DNA from: an uncultured Chloroflexia bacterium
Lineage (GTDB): Bacteria; Chloroflexota; Anaerolineae; Anaerolineales; Anaerolineaceae
Direction of reading: 5' to 3'
Length of the DNA stretch: 32,000 nt
Assembly (NCBI GenBank): GCA_963704755.1
Contig: OY969938.1
Coordinates: forward strand, 2,130,001 to 2,162,000
In this document: positions 9,146-14,698 of the stretch, in pieces
Layout of the letters: each line of letters opens with the position of its first letter
How positions within the stretch are numbered: position 1 is the first letter of the stretch
The notes under the pieces: model-generated
The model's database searches: none
Told to the model about the DNA's origin: nothing
What the model saw: the letters and a program-made list of their open reading frames with translations, nothing else
Position numbers and translations under genes: made by a program

Positions 9146-9233
9146 ATTTTGTAGCCTGATCGTGGTTACGCTCATCTAATCAATAATTTCATGGAAACGC
9201 CGGCCAAGACCGGCTAGAAGGAAGAAAAAGAGA

Positions 9234-9671
9234 ATGAAGAAAAATCGCTGGATTTACTTGCTCGTAGTCGCCTTATTGGTCCTACCCGTATTAGCCGCTT
9301 GCAGCGGCGGCGGCAGCGGTGGCAGCAGTGGTGGTCAGAGCATCAACGTCACGATGACCACCTACAAATTCACTTTGTCGAAAGACAGCGCATCCGCCGG
9401 GACGGTGGTGTTCCACCTCAAGAATGCCGCCACCGACGTGCCGCACCAGTTCACCATTGTCAAAACCGACCTGGATGCGTCCAAACTGCCCACCGACGCC
9501 AATGGCAACGTGGACATAAGCCAGTTGGATTCCGTCGGCGCTTCCCAGCAAATCCAACCTGGGGACAGTGCAGACCTGTCGGTAGATCTCACCGCCGGCC
9601 ACTACGACATCTTCTGCGACGTTGCCGGCCATTATATGGCGGGTATGTACGCCGACTTTACTGTAAATTAG
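9234..9671 (+). CDS. Type-1 (blue) copper protein, auracyanin/azurin-like cupredoxin, lipoprotein-anchored
   Basis: Signal peptide with lipobox VLAAC and a Gly/Ser linker. The upstream His ligand is in VPHQF. The C-terminal ligand loop is FCDVAGHYMAGM (C-x4-H-x4-M). SD AAGGAAG lies upstream. Confidence 0.8.
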   Translation: MKKNRWIYLLVVALLVLPVLAACSGGGSGGSSGGQSINVTMTTYKFTLSKDSASAGTVVFHLKNAATDVPHQFTIVKTDLDASKLPTDANGNVDISQLDSVGASQQIQPGDSADLSVDLTAGHYDIFCDVAGHYMAGMYADFTVN

Positions 9672-10034: not shown

Positions 10035-11918
10035 ATGCCCTATATCTGGAGGAAAACCCTGAAAAGGCCGGTTGTTCTGCTCATTTTCTGGCTATTTTTT
10101 TGTGGGCTGGTGGCAGCCGCAATTCCGGCCGCCTCGCCTGCCCTGGCCCAGGATGAGCAGCCTCCGGAAGGTTACAAACGCCTGACGACTTTGAACGTTT
10201 CCTACACTGCCTACCAGTGGTGGTTGGTCCGCTGGAAGGGCAATGACATAACCTGCCAGTTTACCGTCGACCATGACGGGCTGCCGATCGCGGATGAGAT
10301 CAAAACCTGGTGCGGACCCAGCCTGTACAACGAATGGAAAGCCACCCAACCTTGCAGCCTGGACAGCCAGAATTGTCCGGGCCTGTATCTGTACCTCTAT
10401 TCCAGCAGCCCGGCTGAAAAAGAAGTCCAGGTGGAGCTGCCGCTGCCCAGCGTATGGGTATCCATCAGCGGCTGTTCGCCCCAGCCGCCTGATAACCGCT
10501 GCGATAGCCCCCCCGAGCTGCAATTGACCGGCGAGGAGCCCTTGCCGAACGAAGTTATTATCAGCATCCAGGGCACTGCCAACGGCGAACCCTTCGTCTG
10601 TAACGGGGATAGCTGCGCGATTCCCCTGGCTCCTACCGGCCAGCAGGGCATCACGGTCGAATTCTGGGCCGAATCCAGCTTTGGCGACGAAAGCCCGCAC
10701 TTTACCGCCCAGGTACGCGTAACCGCCCAGGGTGACTTCATGTCTCCCGAAGGTTCGTCTTCCGACTCACCGGTCTATTATGTGGATGTACTCAGCGACC
10801 AGTGGCGCGGTGCGCCGCTGGCAAGCTGTTCCGATACCTGGCAGGCCTTTCCAGACGTGGGCGGCCCGCCAGCCTGGCTCACCACGCCGCCTACGGCGGA
10901 CAATTTATATTCGGCCAACACCCTTTATTACCTGGCCGGTATGCTGATCAGCAATGGCGATGTGGATGCCAGCGCCTGTGCCGATGGCGGCCTGGACAGC
11001 AGCCGGGTTGCCAGCACCTGCGGCCTGCAAGTCGCTCAAGACCAGGTAACCGCATGGCAAAACAAGTTCGACAACGATATCTTTCAGGCTGCACAGGATA
11101 CCGGTGTGCCGGCCCAACTTCTCAAGAATATTTTCAACCGCGAGAGCCAGTTCTGGCCGGGTATCTACCAGAGCTACAAGGAAGCCGGCCTGGGTCAATT
11201 GACTGAAAATGGCGCCGATACCATCCTGCTCTGGAACCCGGATTTCTTCAACCAGTTCTGCCCGCTGCTGCTCCAGCAGGACCGCTGCGACCTGGGCTTT
11301 GGCAACCTCAGCGTTAATGAACAGGCCTTATTGCGCGGCGGGCTGGTCAGCAAGGTCAACGCCACCTGCGAAGATTGCGCCACCGGCATTGACCTGACCC
11401 AGGCCAGTTTCAGCGTTAAAGTCTTCGCCGAAGGGCTGAAAGGCAACTGCGAACAGGTTGGCCGGATCATCACCAATGTGACCAGCGAATATCCCGGCCA
11501 GCTTTCCACCTATTCCGACCTGTGGAAATTTACCCTGGTTAACTACAATGCCGGGCCAGGCTGTCTGGCCAATGCCATCCAGACCACTTACAGCCAGGGC
11601 AAGCCCCTGGATTGGGACAGCGTGACAGGCAACCTGGAAGAAGCCTGCCAGGGAGCCATCCAGTACGTGGACGATATCAGCTCGATGGTGCCTGAGGTAC
11701 AGCCCACGCCTACCTCGTGGGTCTTCCCGGGGCAAACCCCGGCCTCGCCGGGGGTCAGCCCTACCTCGCCGCCTGGCGTCACGTCTACACCCGGCCCCAC
11801 GGCCACCCCATCCCCCACCAGCCAGGGCTATCCCGCCGTGACCCAGCCGGCCACGCCCACACCGGAAGGCTACCCGGCCGTTCCCACCCTCAGCGAGCCG
11901 ACCTATTCCTACCCATAG
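10035..11918 (+). CDS. Secreted protein with a family-1 lytic transglycosylase (SLT) domain, a Cys-rich N-terminal region and a Pro/Thr-rich C-terminal tail
   Basis: Signal peptide ending ASPALAQ. SLT signature triad: NRESQFWPG (catalytic E-S), GLGQLTE, LVNYNAGPG. The tail is PTSPPGVTSTPGPTATPSPT. Confidence 0.75.
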   Translation: MPYIWRKTLKRPVVLLIFWLFFCGLVAAAIPAASPALAQDEQPPEGYKRLTTLNVSYTAYQWWLVRWKGNDITCQFTVDHDGLPIADEIKTWCGPSLYNEWKATQPCSLDSQNCPGLYLYLYSSSPAEKEVQVELPLPSVWVSISGCSPQPPDNRCDSPPELQLTGEEPLPNEVIISIQGTANGEPFVCNGDSCAIPLAPTGQQGITVEFWAESSFGDESPHFTAQVRVTAQGDFMSPEGSSSDSPVYYVDVLSDQWRGAPLASCSDTWQAFPDVGGPPAWLTTPPTADNLYSANTLYYLAGMLISNGDVDASACADGGLDSSRVASTCGLQVAQDQVTAWQNKFDNDIFQAAQDTGVPAQLLKNIFNRESQFWPGIYQSYKEAGLGQLTENGADTILLWNPDFFNQFCPLLLQQDRCDLGFGNLSVNEQALLRGGLVSKVNATCEDCATGIDLTQASFSVKVFAEGLKGNCEQVGRIITNVTSEYPGQLSTYSDLWKFTLVNYNAGPGCLANAIQTTYSQGKPLDWDSVTGNLEEACQGAIQYVDDISSMVPEVQPTPTSWVFPGQTPASPGVSPTSPPGVTSTPGPTATPSPTSQGYPAVTQPATPTPEGYPAVPTLSEPTYSYP

Positions 11919-13512
11919 CGCCAATCCATGCCGCAGCCTGGCTTTCCAAGCCGGGAAAACGCTTGGCTTGAGTATCTCCGCGGTTGGCCCAACCGGCAGC
12001 TAAAGCTGCACCTACGAATACACAAAGACCCATCTGCGTGGGTCCCCCTTTTGGCGAGGCCTGATTCCGAAGGCCGAATTCTCGCATTGTCGGCATTTTC
12101 TCAGGTTGGAATCCGGCGCTTTGACGTCCGACCTGTTGGGTGCGTTTCCAACGCACCAAAACGCTTGGCAATCATGCCTTCCGGATTGGATGGAAATGCT
12201 GCCAAACGGGTTTTGTTACCCAGAGTTTGCCCTTAATCAAACAAAATGGTGCGTTATCAACGCACCCTACATAAACGCCCATCCGGCCTCGTAGCCCGGC
12301 TTTCCAAGCCGGGAAAACGCTTGGCTTGAGTATCTCCGTGGTTGGCCCAACCGGCAGCTAAAGCTTCACCTACGAATACACAAAGACCCATCTGCGTGGG
12401 TCTCACTCTTGGCGAGGCTTGATTCCGAAGGCCGAATTCTCGCATAGCCGGCATTTTCTAAGGTTGGAATCCGGCGCTTCGACGTCCGACCTGTAGGGTG
12501 CGTTTCCAACGCACCAAAACGCTTGGCAATCATGCCTTCCGGGTTGGATGGAAATGCTGCCAAACGGGTTTTGCTACCCGGAGTTTGCCCTTAATCAAAC
12601 AAAATGGTGCGTTATCAACGCACCCTACATAAACGCCCATCCGGCCTCGTAGCCCGGCTTTCCAAGCCGGGAAAACGCCTGGCATGAGCATCTCCGCGGT
12701 TGGCCCAACCGGCAGCTAAAGCTGCACCTACGAATACACAAAGACCCACCTGCGTGGGTCTCACTTTTGGCGAGGCCTGATTCCGAAGGCCGAATTCTCG
12801 CATAGCCGGAATTTTCTTAGGTTGGAAACCGGCGCTTCGACGTCCGACCTGTAGGGTGCGTTTCCAACGCACCAAAACGCTTGGCAATCATGCCTTCTGG
12901 ATTGGATGGAAATGCTGCCAAACGGGTTTTGCTACCCGGAGTTTGCCCTTAATCAAACAAAATGGTGCGTTATCAACGCACCCTACATAAACGCTCATCC
13001 GGCCTCGTAGCCTGGCTTTCACAGCCGGGAAAACGTTTGGCTTGGGCATCTCCGTGGCCAGCCCAACCGGCAGCTAAAGCTGCACCTACGAATACACAAA
13101 GACCCACCTGCGTGGGTATCCCTTTTGGCGAGGCTTGATTCCGAAGGCCGAATTCTCGCATAGCCGGCATTTTCTAAGGTTGGAATCCGGCGCTTCGACG
13201 TCCGACCTGTAGGGTGCGTTTCCAACGCACCAAAACGCTTGGCAATCATGCCTTCTGGATTGGATGGAAATGCTGCCAAACGGGTTTTGCTACCCGGAGT
13301 TTGCCCTTAATCAAACAAAATGGTGCGTTATCAACGCACCCTACATAAACGCTCATCCGGCCTCGTAGCCTGGCTTTCACAGCCGGGAAAACGCTTGGCT
13401 TGAGTATCTCCGCGGTTGGCCCAACCGGCAGCTAAAGCTGCACCTACGAATACACAAAGACCCACCTGCGTGGGTCTCACTCTTAAGCCAGGCCTGATTC
13501 CGCAGCCAGAAC
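11911..13512. repeat. Tandem array of about 4.5 copies of a 358-bp hairpin-rich non-coding unit
   Basis: The phase marker gctttc(c/a) occurs at 11941, 12299, 12657, 13015 and 13373, exactly 358 bp apart each time. Copies 2 and 3 differ by 15 substitutions and no indels (hand alignment). The left edge overlaps the stop codon of the SLT-domain gene. The fifth copy decays at about 13510. Confidence 0.92.
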
Positions 13513-13527
13513 CTGGCCTGCAAACAA

Positions 13528-13585
13528 CTCCCTCTCCCGGCGGCCAAGGCCGGTTTGGATCAGCGTATCACGCTGGGAGAGGGAG
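13528..13585. other. Long-range hairpin: 11-bp perfect stem enclosing 36 nt with internal mini-hairpins
   Basis: ctccctctccc (13528-13538) pairs with gggagagggag (13575-13585). Inside are ggcc-aa-ggcc and agcgt-atc-acgct. It lies between the repeat array and the 3' end of the minus-strand E2-like gene. Confidence 0.5.
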
Positions 13586-13602: not shown

Positions 13603-13617
13603 GGGGCCAGAGGCCCC
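13603..13617 (-). terminator. Short GC hairpin just downstream of the E2-like gene stop (weak terminator candidate)
   Basis: ggggcc-aga-ggcccc. On the minus strand it is followed by TCTCATCTGAATTTCTTC. Confidence 0.35.
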
Positions 13618-13629
13618 GTTAAAGCCCGG

Positions 13630-14583
13630 TTACCAGGTTCGAATCACACCCGGTTCTGCGAAAATTTCATCCAGGCGCTTCAAGAATGGAATAAGAACGT
13701 TGAAATCGACGGCCCGGTGATCAAAAGCCAGACACATCGGAATGACTTTACGGATGCCGATCTCTTTTTGACCCCGGTCGTTTACGAATACCCCCGGTTT
13801 TTCCTGGATCGCGCCTAATCCAATCGCGAATATTTGCGGCGGGATAATTTCAAGTATGCCGAAGGCCCCTTTTTGTTCTTTGTACAGCGACCCGATGTTC
13901 GATACGGTCACCGTGCCCTGGGTGAGGTTCTCGGCGGGTAATCGATCTTCCGAGGGTATTCGATAATAGTCCCGTCTGTCCTGGCCCGTCAGCTTTTTTA
14001 TTCGATGAATACCTAATTCGACGGCAAAAACTCTGCGAAGTACATCCAGATGGAATTTCTTGAGTTCATCGAGCGTATCTTTCCGGGCGGCTTGATACAG
14101 CATTTCATCGATGTTGGTATTTTTTATTTTTCCGCCTAACGCTGCGATTGCATTGGAAAGTTCATCGACGGTCATCGCTTCTGTATTGGAAAGCACGGGG
14201 GTAATCAATCTTCCATCCGGTAACAGCCAGGGGATAGAAATGTTGATCTGGGTGCTTATGGTTAGGGTCCCTTCCCCTTTGACGTGGTTATATTGGATCC
14301 GCGAGTTCAATTTCGGGGACGTTTTGAGTCCTTCGATGATCACCCGCAGCATGATGGTGTTGATAGAGATTCTATGGTCTTGCTCGGTTTTAGTCTCGGC
14401 CAGGCCATTGAATTCTTCGATAAATTTGGTCACGTCCGGTTCGTACAAATAAGTCACATGAGGAATGTTCTTCCATGACTCTGAGGTCATATGGGAAACG
14501 ACTCTGCGTTGCAAATCAAAAAAACCGACCGGTTCCGATCGCGTATTTGGCTCGGCCATAATTTTATCCTCGGGTAGTGACAT
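13630..14583 (-). CDS. 2-oxoacid dehydrogenase E2-type acyltransferase, catalytic domain only (no lipoyl or E3-binding domain)
   Basis: The C-terminal active-site motif is LAFDHRAVDF (DHRxxDG-like), with E2/CAT-fold length. ATG at 14583 has GGAAAA upstream. Only about 115 bp lie upstream, so a lipoyl domain does not fit. The composition is visibly more A/T-rich than the neighbours. Confidence 0.75.
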   Translation of the reverse strand: MSLPEDKIMAEPNTRSEPVGFFDLQRRVVSHMTSESWKNIPHVTYLYEPDVTKFIEEFNGLAETKTEQDHRISINTIMLRVIIEGLKTSPKLNSRIQYNHVKGEGTLTISTQINISIPWLLPDGRLITPVLSNTEAMTVDELSNAIAALGGKIKNTNIDEMLYQAARKDTLDELKKFHLDVLRRVFAVELGIHRIKKLTGQDRRDYYRIPSEDRLPAENLTQGTVTVSNIGSLYKEQKGAFGILEIIPPQIFAIGLGAIQEKPGVFVNDRGQKEIGIRKVIPMCLAFDHRAVDFNVLIPFLKRLDEIFAEPGVIRTW

Positions 14584-14698
14584 ATTTTCCTTAGCAGCCC
14601 CTGCAAGAACGCAAAAACCCACCTTCCGGGTCTCTTTTTTCGGCCCGGTACAGGCCAGGTTTCGTGTTTTCGTTGCCTTGCCCCTGGTCGGCCCTTTT

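Follow-up and report, generated by a model that had tools for sequence, protein, structure and literature searches.

The tandem repeat that lies between two convergent genes in this Anaerolineae-type chromosome is very probably a BIME-like cluster of GTAG-tagged REP elements, as judged from its GTAG-tagged hairpins, from the inverted pair that two of them form, and from the presence of the same motif on both sides of RAYT genes in relatives. Bacterial repeat clusters of this kind are known, and the array stands out among them by its unusually long period of 358 bp. On this reading, an apparently unclassifiable hairpin-dense satellite turns into an instance of the system made of REPs and their tyrosine transposase, and the array opens no new category. 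A preliminary description of this DNA had named a BIME-like REP cluster among its candidates, together with an array of small-RNA genes and a multimer of a small replicon, and it is the first of these that our results favour.

The 358-bp repeat and its surroundings

The analysed window is a stretch of 32,000 nucleotides, in which Tandem Repeats Finder (TRF) detected a repeat at 11935-13502 with a period of 358, 4.4 copies, 95% matches, 0% indels and a score of 2812. In a base-by-base self-comparison at offset 358 the repeat was visible from 11932 to about 13485, and the unit was also compared with the window by blastn. The array, which has no assigned strand, spans 11932-13511 and consists of 4.4 head-to-tail copies of a 358-bp unit with 95% matches. 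The TRF run proposed in the preliminary description thus confirmed the period and came close to the copy number given there (about 4.5). Four units are complete (starting at 11932, 12290, 12648 and 13006) and a fifth is partial (13364-13511); its last ~25 nt, the diverged tail that reaches 13511, contain one 1-nt insertion. The strict absence of indels claimed before holds for the four full copies (0% by TRF) and fails in this tail.

Adjacent full copies are 95.3-96.1% identical, so that the earlier estimate of about 96% stands, and between copies 2 and 3 there are 14 differing sites instead of the 15 counted before. The copies have diverged by 4-6%, and neighbouring ones are more similar than distant ones. 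Among the four full copies 32 columns are variable, 24 of them in unit positions 1-179 and 8 in positions 180-358. This uneven density (Fisher p = 0.005) means that the clustering of substitutions in the first half of the unit, noticed previously, is real, though moderate.

The array lies downstream of a gene for an SLT-domain protein (10035..11918, plus strand; Pfam PF01464; 627 aa with a Pro/Thr-rich tail), for which we found a 100% identical protein (P0001) encoded on a contig of 4,871,623 bp. The stop codon of this ORF is the TAG at 11916-11918 and the repeat begins 14 nt later, at 11932; the array does not, as had been thought, start inside the last codons of the gene. On the other side stands a convergent gene with a 2-oxoacid dehydrogenase acyltransferase catalytic domain (13630..14622, minus strand; Pfam PF00198, E = 7e-35), whose likely start, by reading the sequence, is the ATG at 14583. 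The distance from the array end to the stop of this gene at 13630 is 118-128 nt, which agrees with the value of about 120 bp given earlier. The array is therefore extragenic, as REPs are, being placed between the stops of two convergent ORFs at 11918 and 13630. We also looked at three genes related to the SLT-domain gene at 64-65% identity: other genes lie downstream of them, neither a tagged hairpin nor a homologue of the unit is present, and no ancestral state can be inferred from them.

An exact-protein look-up with the cupredoxin gene of the window led to L001, a contig assembled from the short reads of a second sample (Logan ERR11571143), which matches 6050 nt of the window at 99.95% identity. 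This contig stops 38 nt into the first unit, as is expected at a repeat, and it reproduces the left array junction in an independent sample.

Other identities were looked for as well. A coding array was rejected because every unit has stops in all six frames, in line with the non-coding nature proposed at the outset, and a CRISPR array, which had also been discounted, was rejected because the segments between the hairpins are themselves repeated at 95% identity and there are no unique spacers. No tRNA or tmRNA was found.

GTAG-tagged hairpins within the unit

According to PMC3733652 and PMC8266576, a REP (repetitive extragenic palindrome) is a short palindrome (about 20-50 nt) that can form a stem-loop, with an unpaired and conserved tetranucleotide, usually GTAG, on one side. 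A scan for GTAG hairpins found three such elements per unit, each a GTAG tag followed by a perfect 8-bp stem and a 3-nt loop, and none outside the array in the 32-kb window, where shuffled sequences give 0.3. Two of the three have the form GGTGCGTT-NNN-AACGCACC, occur in every unit and carry the GTAG/CTAC tag outward, while the third has the same tag. The two hairpins had already been recognised; they are 90 nt apart, and not about 100 nt as reported.

The first of them, REP-b, reads GTAG-GGTGCGTT-TCC-AACGCACC followed by AAAACGCTTGGC on the plus strand (12493..12515, also 12851-12873 and 13209-13231); in copy 1 (12135-12157) its tag is mutated to GTTG. Its inverted partner REP-c, located by the hairpin and terminator-like scans, reads GTAG-GGTGCGTT-GAT-AACGCACC followed by ATTTTGTTTG on the minus strand (12606..12628, also 12248-12270, 12964-12986 and 13322-13344), resembles a terminator and is invariant in four of four copies. 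This pair, with REP-b on the plus and REP-c on the minus strand, is present four times at a 358-nt period, an arrangement typical of a BIME. The 90-nt spacer between the two (12516..12605, and at +/-358 nt in the other three units; no assigned strand) was delimited by folding and by the variability count; it has variable columns at 4 of its 90 positions and holds three small hairpins of its own. As single-stranded DNA, REP-b, spacer and REP-c are predicted to fold into one long hairpin (dG -38.3 kcal/mol, z = -6.4), and this module is the best-conserved part of the unit.

The third hairpin, REP-a, was found by the GTAG-hairpin scan and by blastn of the unit and reads GTAG-CCCGGCTT-TCC-AAGCCGGG, then AAAACGCTTGGC, on the plus strand (12291..12313, also 12649-12671). 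It has tag, stem length, loop and 3' tail in common with REP-b, and the stems differ at five of eight positions, each change being matched by a compensating one in the opposite arm. Copy 1 (11933-11955) has a GCAG tag, and in copies 4 and 5 (13007-13029 and 13365-13387) the stem is weakened. This variant was absent from all genome loci that we fetched except the contig from the second sample.

The list of GTAG/CTAC sites also yielded a degenerate candidate, REP-d, with GTAG-GT-GCAGCT-TT-AGCTGC and thus a 6-bp stem on the minus strand (12354..12373, also 11996-12015, 12712-12731, 13070-13089 and 13428-13447). The fold of 12287-12380 pairs CGTAG with CTACG, if weakly (z = -2.2). REP-a and this putative element would form a second outward-tagged pair. 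A further hairpin, GACCCAY-CTGC-GTGGGTC, is untagged and came from the terminator-like scan (12385..12402, also 12027-12044, 12743-12760, 13101-13118 and 13459-13476; no assigned strand). Being bordered by T-rich sequence on both sides, it is terminator-like in either direction, and on the plus strand alone its T/C variant still allows a G-U pair. The segment from REP-c to the next REP-b measures 222 nt and contains no known motif.

The motif and RAYT genes in other genomes

The 20-nt motif GTAGGGTGCGTT-N3-AACGCACC matched more than 118 stretches, a lower bound, from about six phyla, against about one match calculated by chance for a motif of 20 fixed bases when both strands of 596 Gb are counted. 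Among the matches listed, the sources are Anaerolineae/Chloroflexota, Cyanobacteria, Proteobacteria and other phyla. The flanks of the matches are mutually unrelated, many of the matches are outward-tagged inverted pairs or full palindromes, and in 8 of the 118 loci listed the motif is part of a tandem repeat with a period of 26-367. Prochloron has more than 25 stretches with the exact motif, and single Anaerolineae and Chloroflexota MAGs have several dispersed exact copies each.

In six loci selected by the motif, a Y1 transposase gene or its remnant stands 0-217 nt from it. With the NCBIfam model NF047646, 'REP-associated tyrosine transposase', the intact transposase reaches 192 bits (cut-off 80), and it also matches Pfam PF01797. 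To avoid bias, we further took three RAYT genes on the strength of protein similarity only; inverted tagged hairpins border each of them, at a distance of 17-30 nt from the start and from the stop. The exact motif occurs at two of the three, and the third has stem-compensated variants. Across the loci, the exact motif stands at the flanks of the RAYT genes of L130, L131 and L027 and adjoins RAYT genes or remnants in L041, L048, L049, L108 and L119, while L132 has compensated variants of it. Related genomes thus show this class of REP flanking a RAYT gene in inverted orientation, and REPs of this sequence are, in those genomes, the cognate sites of a RAYT clade. This extends the REP-RAYT system to Anaerolineae-type Chloroflexota with direct evidence of REP-flanked RAYT genes, and the 20-nt motif can serve in searches as a marker of the system across many phyla. 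On a more doubtful reading, an identical 20-nt REP together with its RAYT clade in about six phyla would imply horizontal spread of REP and RAYT; the published view is that these systems are mostly inherited vertically.

No RAYT gene was detected in the 32-kb window by tblastn, and the source contig was absent among the 120 candidates listed of 8000 in a RAYT profile search. Three RAYT loci of 18-20 kb contain only the two flanking motif copies each, so the density of REPs can be low.

Searches with the remaining parts of the unit gave no relatives. The 358-bp unit had no blastn match in plasmids and phages, and a metagenome scan with a 20-mer of the spacer gave seven matches, none of which extended past 21-27 nt and which are therefore at chance level. 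Outside the array we found no further REP-b/REP-c doublet having this spacer, and a literature search with the sequence strings brought up unrelated primers only. Viral-contig scans gave no REP-b match and two REP-a matches, which by reading the sequence lie apparently in a GC-rich coding-like context and were taken as chance. For the non-REP remainder of the unit there was no homologue in any collection searched. The view that the unit belongs to no described family is correct for the 358-bp unit as a whole, and not for its hairpins, which belong to the GTAG-REP class.

Known repeat clusters and competing readings

Like the BIMEs (bacterial interspersed mosaic elements) of Enterobacteria, the array consists of GTAG-tagged palindromes in inverted pairs with a linker, reiterated head to tail at an extragenic site at the 3' ends of genes, and its REP class is tied to a RAYT (also TnpA-REP) gene flanked by the same REPs. 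BIMEs in E. coli have short conserved linker motifs and bind the host factors IHF, gyrase and Pol I. The array differs from them in several points: it belongs to an Anaerolineae-type Chloroflexota, its unit of 358 bp compares with roughly 100 bp or less in BIMEs, REP sequence makes up only about a fifth to a quarter of that unit, other, untagged hairpins are included, and the 222-nt segment between REP-c and REP-b far exceeds E. coli BIME linkers. Moreover, the REPs here have a perfectly palindromic 8-bp stem closed by a 3-nt loop, whereas the stem of E. coli REPs is bulged, and this bulged stem is needed for activity (PMC8266576).

A second known system is the superfamily of GTAG-tagged REPs. 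Di Nocera et al. 2013 describe 24 families of it, Chloroflexi included, with GTAG-23 of the Chloroflexi Thermomicrobium roseum mostly clustered, a preference for sites between convergent ORFs, and clusters that reiterate dimers together with flanking DNA (PMC3733652). Our elements share with the superfamily the tag, a stem length within 6-13 bp, a short loop, G-T pairs in stems, outward-tagged ('HH') dimers with a conserved spacer of 20-100 nt, and clusters of dimers plus flanking DNA between convergent ORFs. The species set given there excludes Anaerolineae, and GTAG-GGTGCGTT-N3-AACGCACC is absent from the text and supplements of that paper, whose 24 consensus sequences stand in a figure.

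The Pseudomonas REPINs of Bertels and Rainey 2011 reportedly consist of two inverted REPs and a spacer, mobilised as a unit by a single-copy RAYT. REP-b, spacer and REP-c resemble them as an inverted doublet that forms one long hairpin and is the best-conserved part of the unit. They differ in the 90-nt spacer with its three small hairpins and in that no same-spacer doublet was found outside the array.

The most likely sequence of events is as follows. The element reiterated in tandem is the inverted REP pair with further tagged hairpins and flanking DNA, in which REP-b, spacer and REP-c form a REPIN-like module predicted to fold as one long hairpin. A clade of RAYT proteins, which are HUH/Y1 enzymes, would act on these REPs as cognate sites; RAYT enzymes bind the folded hairpin and the GTAG tag on single-stranded DNA and cut at nearby CT or CA sites (PMC8266576). 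Head-to-tail reiteration probably proceeded by unequal recombination or replication slippage between REPs, or by RAYT cleavage and strand transfer, after which the copies have diverged by 4-6%. Since the array lies between two convergent genes, the hairpins with their T-runs probably act, judging by what is published on REPs, as transcription stops or as stabilisers of RNA 3' ends in both directions. With its unusually long unit and its conserved inverted-pair module, the locus is a usable test case for the amplification of REP clusters.

Several observations weigh against the REP-cluster reading. REPs account for only about 70-90 of the 358 nt in each unit, about 200 nt being other DNA, and the remainder lacks a homologue in the collections searched. 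In length the unit far exceeds the classical BIME units, there is no RAYT in the window or from the source contig among the 120 of 8000 candidates listed, REP-a was seen in no other genome locus, and the right array edge is not at a REP. Finally, that indels are absent and that half of the unit is conserved could be due to selection on a non-REP function.

A doubtful proposal is that the array is more than a passive REP cluster. Its left junction falls exactly at a GTAG tag, and for this reason the array could preserve a record of RAYT-driven tandem amplification and show how BIME-type clusters grow. Alternatively, the conserved and indel-free module of REP-b, spacer and REP-c may have taken on another role as a repeated element of structured RNA or DNA, e.g., as a multi-stop bidirectional terminator or a protein-binding platform in the space between the convergent genes.

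Unlikely, too, is a neutral and functionless local minisatellite, that is, a REP-containing intergenic segment in whose making and keeping REPs and RAYT took no part. The unit is unique to this locus in the collections searched, relatives at about 64% protein identity lack the array and have other neighbour genes, the similarity of copies falls with distance, and the right edge lies outside any REP. However, the left edge coincides with the REP-a tag, REP families are prone to tandem reiteration (seen for this motif in the 8 of 118 listed loci), and substitutions are unevenly spread over the unit (p = 0.005) with no indels. The minisatellite and the REP cluster agree on the identity of the hairpins; what separates them is solely the function and the cause given for the amplification.

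We consider it quite improbable that the units are tandem structured small-RNA genes, each a transcription unit with the REP-like hairpins as terminators or processing sites. On either strand the unit does fold much better than shuffled sequence (z = -4.4 and -5.1), the minus strand of every unit carries terminator-like hairpins that have T-runs, two T/C variants retain G-U pairs on the plus strand only, the four full copies are free of indels and half of the unit is conserved. However, the strong folding is accounted for by the REP palindromes, and a scan of the array with the sigma-70 consensus gave no promoter-like site. Rfam, another check proposed earlier, yielded no family at gathering score in the whole window, and on the array at E < 10 only noise, from eukaryotic or viral families that are implausible here and score no more than a third of their cut-offs. 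The non-REP part, as the suggested similarity search of the unit also made clear, has no match elsewhere in anything searched, and hence there is no covariation support for an RNA. For annotation, a hairpin-rich tandem repeat of long period that lies between convergent genes should be examined for GTAG-tagged palindromes before it is proposed as a new RNA gene.

That a small replicon, rolling-circle or viroid-like, has integrated as a multimer, or that the array is an assembly artefact, finds support only in the head-to-tail order and the strictly constant unit length, and is highly improbable given that there is no ribozyme or other Rfam match, that no ORF is kept in frame from one unit to the next, that phages, plasmids and viral contigs gave no match, that copies differing by 4-6% are unlike a recent multimer and, being individually distinguishable, unlike a collapse or expansion artefact, and that the left junction recurs in the independent sample.

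A diverged 358-bp array between convergent genes

In the window, Tandem Repeats Finder detected a single strong array, at 11935-13502 (period 358, 4.4 copies, 95% matches, 0% indels, score 2812), which confirms the head-to-tail 358-bp repeat reported in the preliminary description. When each base was compared with the base 358 nt downstream, identity was near-continuous from 11932 to about 13485, and in blastn the partial last copy reached 13511 with one 1-nt insertion. The four full copies carry no indels, as had been noted. Identity is 95.3-96.1% between adjacent full copies and 93.6% for copies 1 and 4, a divergence since reiteration of 4-6%. Copies 2 and 3 lie in the range of about 96% identity, as had been noted, but we counted 14 differing sites instead of 15. 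Unit positions 1-179 hold 24 of the 32 columns that vary among the four full copies, and positions 180-358 the other 8 (Fisher p = 0.005), so the described concentration of substitutions in the first part of the unit is borne out, though it is moderate. Each unit has stops in all six frames, in agreement with its presumed non-coding nature, and no tRNA or tmRNA was found.

The array is approached by two convergent genes, one for an SLT-domain protein (10035-11918, plus strand; nearest named relatives in Bellilinea, Thermanaerothrix and Longilinea) and one for a 2-oxoacid dehydrogenase acyltransferase catalytic-domain protein (13630-14622, minus strand). A protein identical to the former is encoded on a 4,871,623-bp contig, and those relatives indicate that the array sits in a chromosome of an Anaerolineae-type Chloroflexota. 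It was previously placed as starting within the last codons of the SLT gene; its start is in fact 14 nt past the stop codon. The left edge coincides with the tag of the first hairpin of the unit (REP-a), while no REP is found at the right edge. A short-read contig of an independent sample (Logan ERR11571143) matches the window with 99.95% identity across 6050 nt and stops 38 nt inside the first unit, which is the expected effect of a real repeat on short-read assembly. The left junction of the array is thus independently confirmed.

The acyltransferase gene product consists of the catalytic domain of 2-oxoacid dehydrogenase E2 alone (PF00198), with no lipoyl or E3-binding domain found by Pfam. 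No E1 or E3 gene adjoins it, the neighbours being genes for an NTPase (DUF84) and a methyltransferase.

GTAG-tagged hairpins of the unit

The two hairpins described earlier are present in each unit, not as bare palindromes but with GTAG tags. The left one, REP-b, reads GTAG-GGTGCGTT-TCC-AACGCACC; the right one, REP-c, has CTAC behind it and reads GTAG-GGTGCGTT-GAT-AACGCACC on the minus strand, so that the tags of the pair point outward, with 90 nt between the hairpins. REP-a, which opens the unit, is of the same design (GTAG-CCCGGCTT-TCC-AAGCCGGG) and matches REP-b in its tag, in stem length (8 bp), in its TCC loop and in the 12 nt that follow (AAAACGCTTGGC). The stems of the two differ at 5 of 8 positions, every change being compensated on the other arm. 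A systematic search for a GTAG tag with a perfect stem of 7 bp or more behind it gave three hairpins per unit and none in the other 30 kb of the window (0.3 in shuffles). A weaker hairpin with a 6-bp stem, the candidate REP-d, follows a fourth GTAG on the minus strand; it could form a second outward-tagged pair with REP-a, the fold support being weak (z = -2.2).

A fold of the single-stranded DNA predicts one long hairpin for REP-b, spacer and REP-c together, with a base stem of 13 + 9 pairs and three small hairpins at its tip (dG -38.3 kcal/mol, z = -6.4; shuffles, -18.8 kcal/mol). The conserved half of the unit is made up of this module: variable columns number 0 of 23 in REP-c, 1 of 23 in REP-b and 4 of 90 in the spacer.

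A terminator-like scan found a hairpin and T-run for either reading direction in each unit, namely REP-c followed by ATTTTGTTTG (minus strand) and, flanked by T-rich tails on either strand, GACCCAY-CTGC-GTGGGTC. It is therefore plausible, and in line with the REP literature, that the array ends transcription in both directions or stabilises the 3' ends of transcripts from the two converging genes. Two more inverted repeats, neither GTAG-tagged, are found in the interval that separates the array from the acyltransferase gene. The first (13528-13585) is an 11-bp repeat, CTCCCTCTCCC / GGGAGAGGGAG, whose 36-nt loop holds a small palindrome of its own. The second, GGGGCC-AGA-GGCCCC (13603-13617), lies 13 nt beyond the acyltransferase stop, with a T-rich stretch after it on the minus strand; it probably terminates that gene.

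The motif and its transposase in other genomes

Since REP elements are marked by a palindrome with a tag, we scanned other genomes (one per species, 596 Gb, both strands) for GTAGGGTGCGTTNNNAACGCACC. About one match to its 20 specified bases would be expected by chance, assuming even base composition; more than 118 stretches matched. Among the matches listed were many Anaerolineae and other Chloroflexota MAGs, many Cyanobacteria (Prochloron alone with more than 25 stretches), Alpha-, Beta- and Gammaproteobacteria, Campylobacterota, one Planctomycetota MAG and one Zixibacteria MAG. The flanks are unrelated, and only a 23-27-nt hairpin is common to these loci and our unit. The matches include many outward-tagged inverted pairs (spacers of 2-90 nt) or full 12-bp palindromes (GTAGGGTGCGTT-N3-AACGCACCCTAC), and in 8 of 118 loci among the matches listed the motif lies within a tandem repeat of period 26-367. 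The identical 20-nt REP (GTAG-GGTGCGTT-N3-AACGCACC) had no match in viral contigs. Its occurrence across phyla suggests that a REP-transposase pair has spread horizontally or been conserved to an extreme degree; published abstracts describe such systems as mostly vertically inherited.

Of the fetched loci, the one with a repeat nearest in size to our array comes from Scytonema sp. PCC 10023 (L063:5501-6226), where two tandem copies of period 367 (92% matches) hold the same REP. In four cyanobacterial loci (L014, L038, L047 and L054, from Prochloron and Oscillatoria) the REP lies mid-way in a longer inverted repeat with ends CAGGACTTACGCA ... TGCGTAAGTCCTG, and looks nested in a MITE-like element.

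Clustering of all ORFs in the motif-selected loci placed one protein family 0-217 nt from the motif in five of them (L027, L041, L048, L049 and L108); tblastn with the L041 protein returned the same five and a fragment in L119. The intact L041 protein matches Pfam Y1_Tnp and scores 192 bits on NCBIfam NF047646, 'REP-associated tyrosine transposase' (RAYT; equivalog, cut-off 80). Because these loci had been selected by the motif, we also ran a profile search with the RAYT proteins and picked three homologues on long contigs by protein similarity only. In all three (L130, L131 and L132), inverted GTAG hairpins bracket the RAYT gene, 27-30 nt upstream of its start and 17-23 nt downstream of its stop. 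L130 and L131 carry exact GTAGGGTGCGTT-N3-AACGCACC on either side; L132 carries GTAGGGTGCGGT-TTT-ACCGCACC and GTAGGGTGTGGTC-ACA-GACCACACC, variants whose stem changes have compensating changes on the opposite arm. REP-RAYT systems are defined by just this arrangement, the 'REPtron' (PMC3733652; PMC8266576).

No RAYT was found in the window by tblastn, and the 4,871,623-bp source contig is absent from the 120 RAYT homologues listed. The three RAYT loci (18-20 kb) themselves contain no further tagged hairpin save one unrelated 6-bp-stem match in L132, so little can be read into the absence of further copies from the 32-kb window. Many of the homologues listed are on contigs of only 0.7-2 kb, as expected if flanking REPs break short-read assemblies. 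The RAYT genes of L041, L049, L130, L131 and L132 are intact; those of L027:132-638 (internal stop), L048:1813-2361 and L108:3785-4307 (frameshifts) are broken.

The array as a probable REP cluster

Of the three explanations first proposed for the array, the evidence supports a BIME-like cluster, that is, a tandem cluster of REP/inverted-REP pairs, given its GTAG-tagged hairpins and the motif flanking RAYT genes elsewhere. The hairpins fall into a class of GTAG-REPs that serves as the cognate flank of a RAYT clade common in Anaerolineae and is prone to tandem reiteration. Di Nocera et al. 2013 (PMC3733652) divided the GTAG-tagged REPs of Proteobacteria, Cyanobacteria, Chloroflexi and the PVC group into 24 families. 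By their account, stems are of 6-13 bp and include G-T pairs, many loops have 2-3 nt, dimers with outward tags ('HH') are frequent, their 20-100-nt spacers tending to be conserved, and sites flanked by unidirectional or convergent ORFs are preferred. According to Corneloup et al. 2021 (PMC8266576), REPs often occur as BIMEs, and RAYTs bind the folded single-stranded hairpin and tag and cut at CT or CA sites close by. Our array fits every one of these descriptors. The stem string does not occur in the text or supplements of PMC3733652, where the 24 consensus sequences are given in a figure. The kind of cluster is known; the long period and the host lineage are what is notable here.

We propose that a 358-bp module, made of an inverted REP pair, one or two more tagged hairpins and other DNA, was reiterated 4.4 times and then diverged by 4-6%. 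The amplification may have proceeded by unequal exchange or slippage between repeated REPs, or by cleavage and strand transfer through RAYT. For some three quarters of the unit, no homologue was found in a metagenome 20-mer scan (chance-level matches), plasmids, phages or the loci of three relatives.

A purely neutral minisatellite that merely contains REPs would differ from the BIME-like reading in cause and function only, and we consider it unlikely. We give slightly less credence still to a set of small-RNA genes, also among the initial candidates: the strong folding scores that favour it are accounted for by the REP palindromes, a sigma-70 consensus scan found no promoter-like site within the array, and neither Rfam support nor homologues were found. 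An integrated replicon multimer, the remaining candidate, or an assembly artefact is disfavoured by the diverged copies and the confirmed left junction, and the former also by the lack of a ribozyme, a conserved ORF or any viral, plasmid or phage match.

Elsewhere in the window, a 15-nt tandem repeat (AGAAGGAAGAAAAAG, 1.9 copies, 9216-9244) overlaps the ribosome-binding region and start of a cupredoxin-like gene at 9234.
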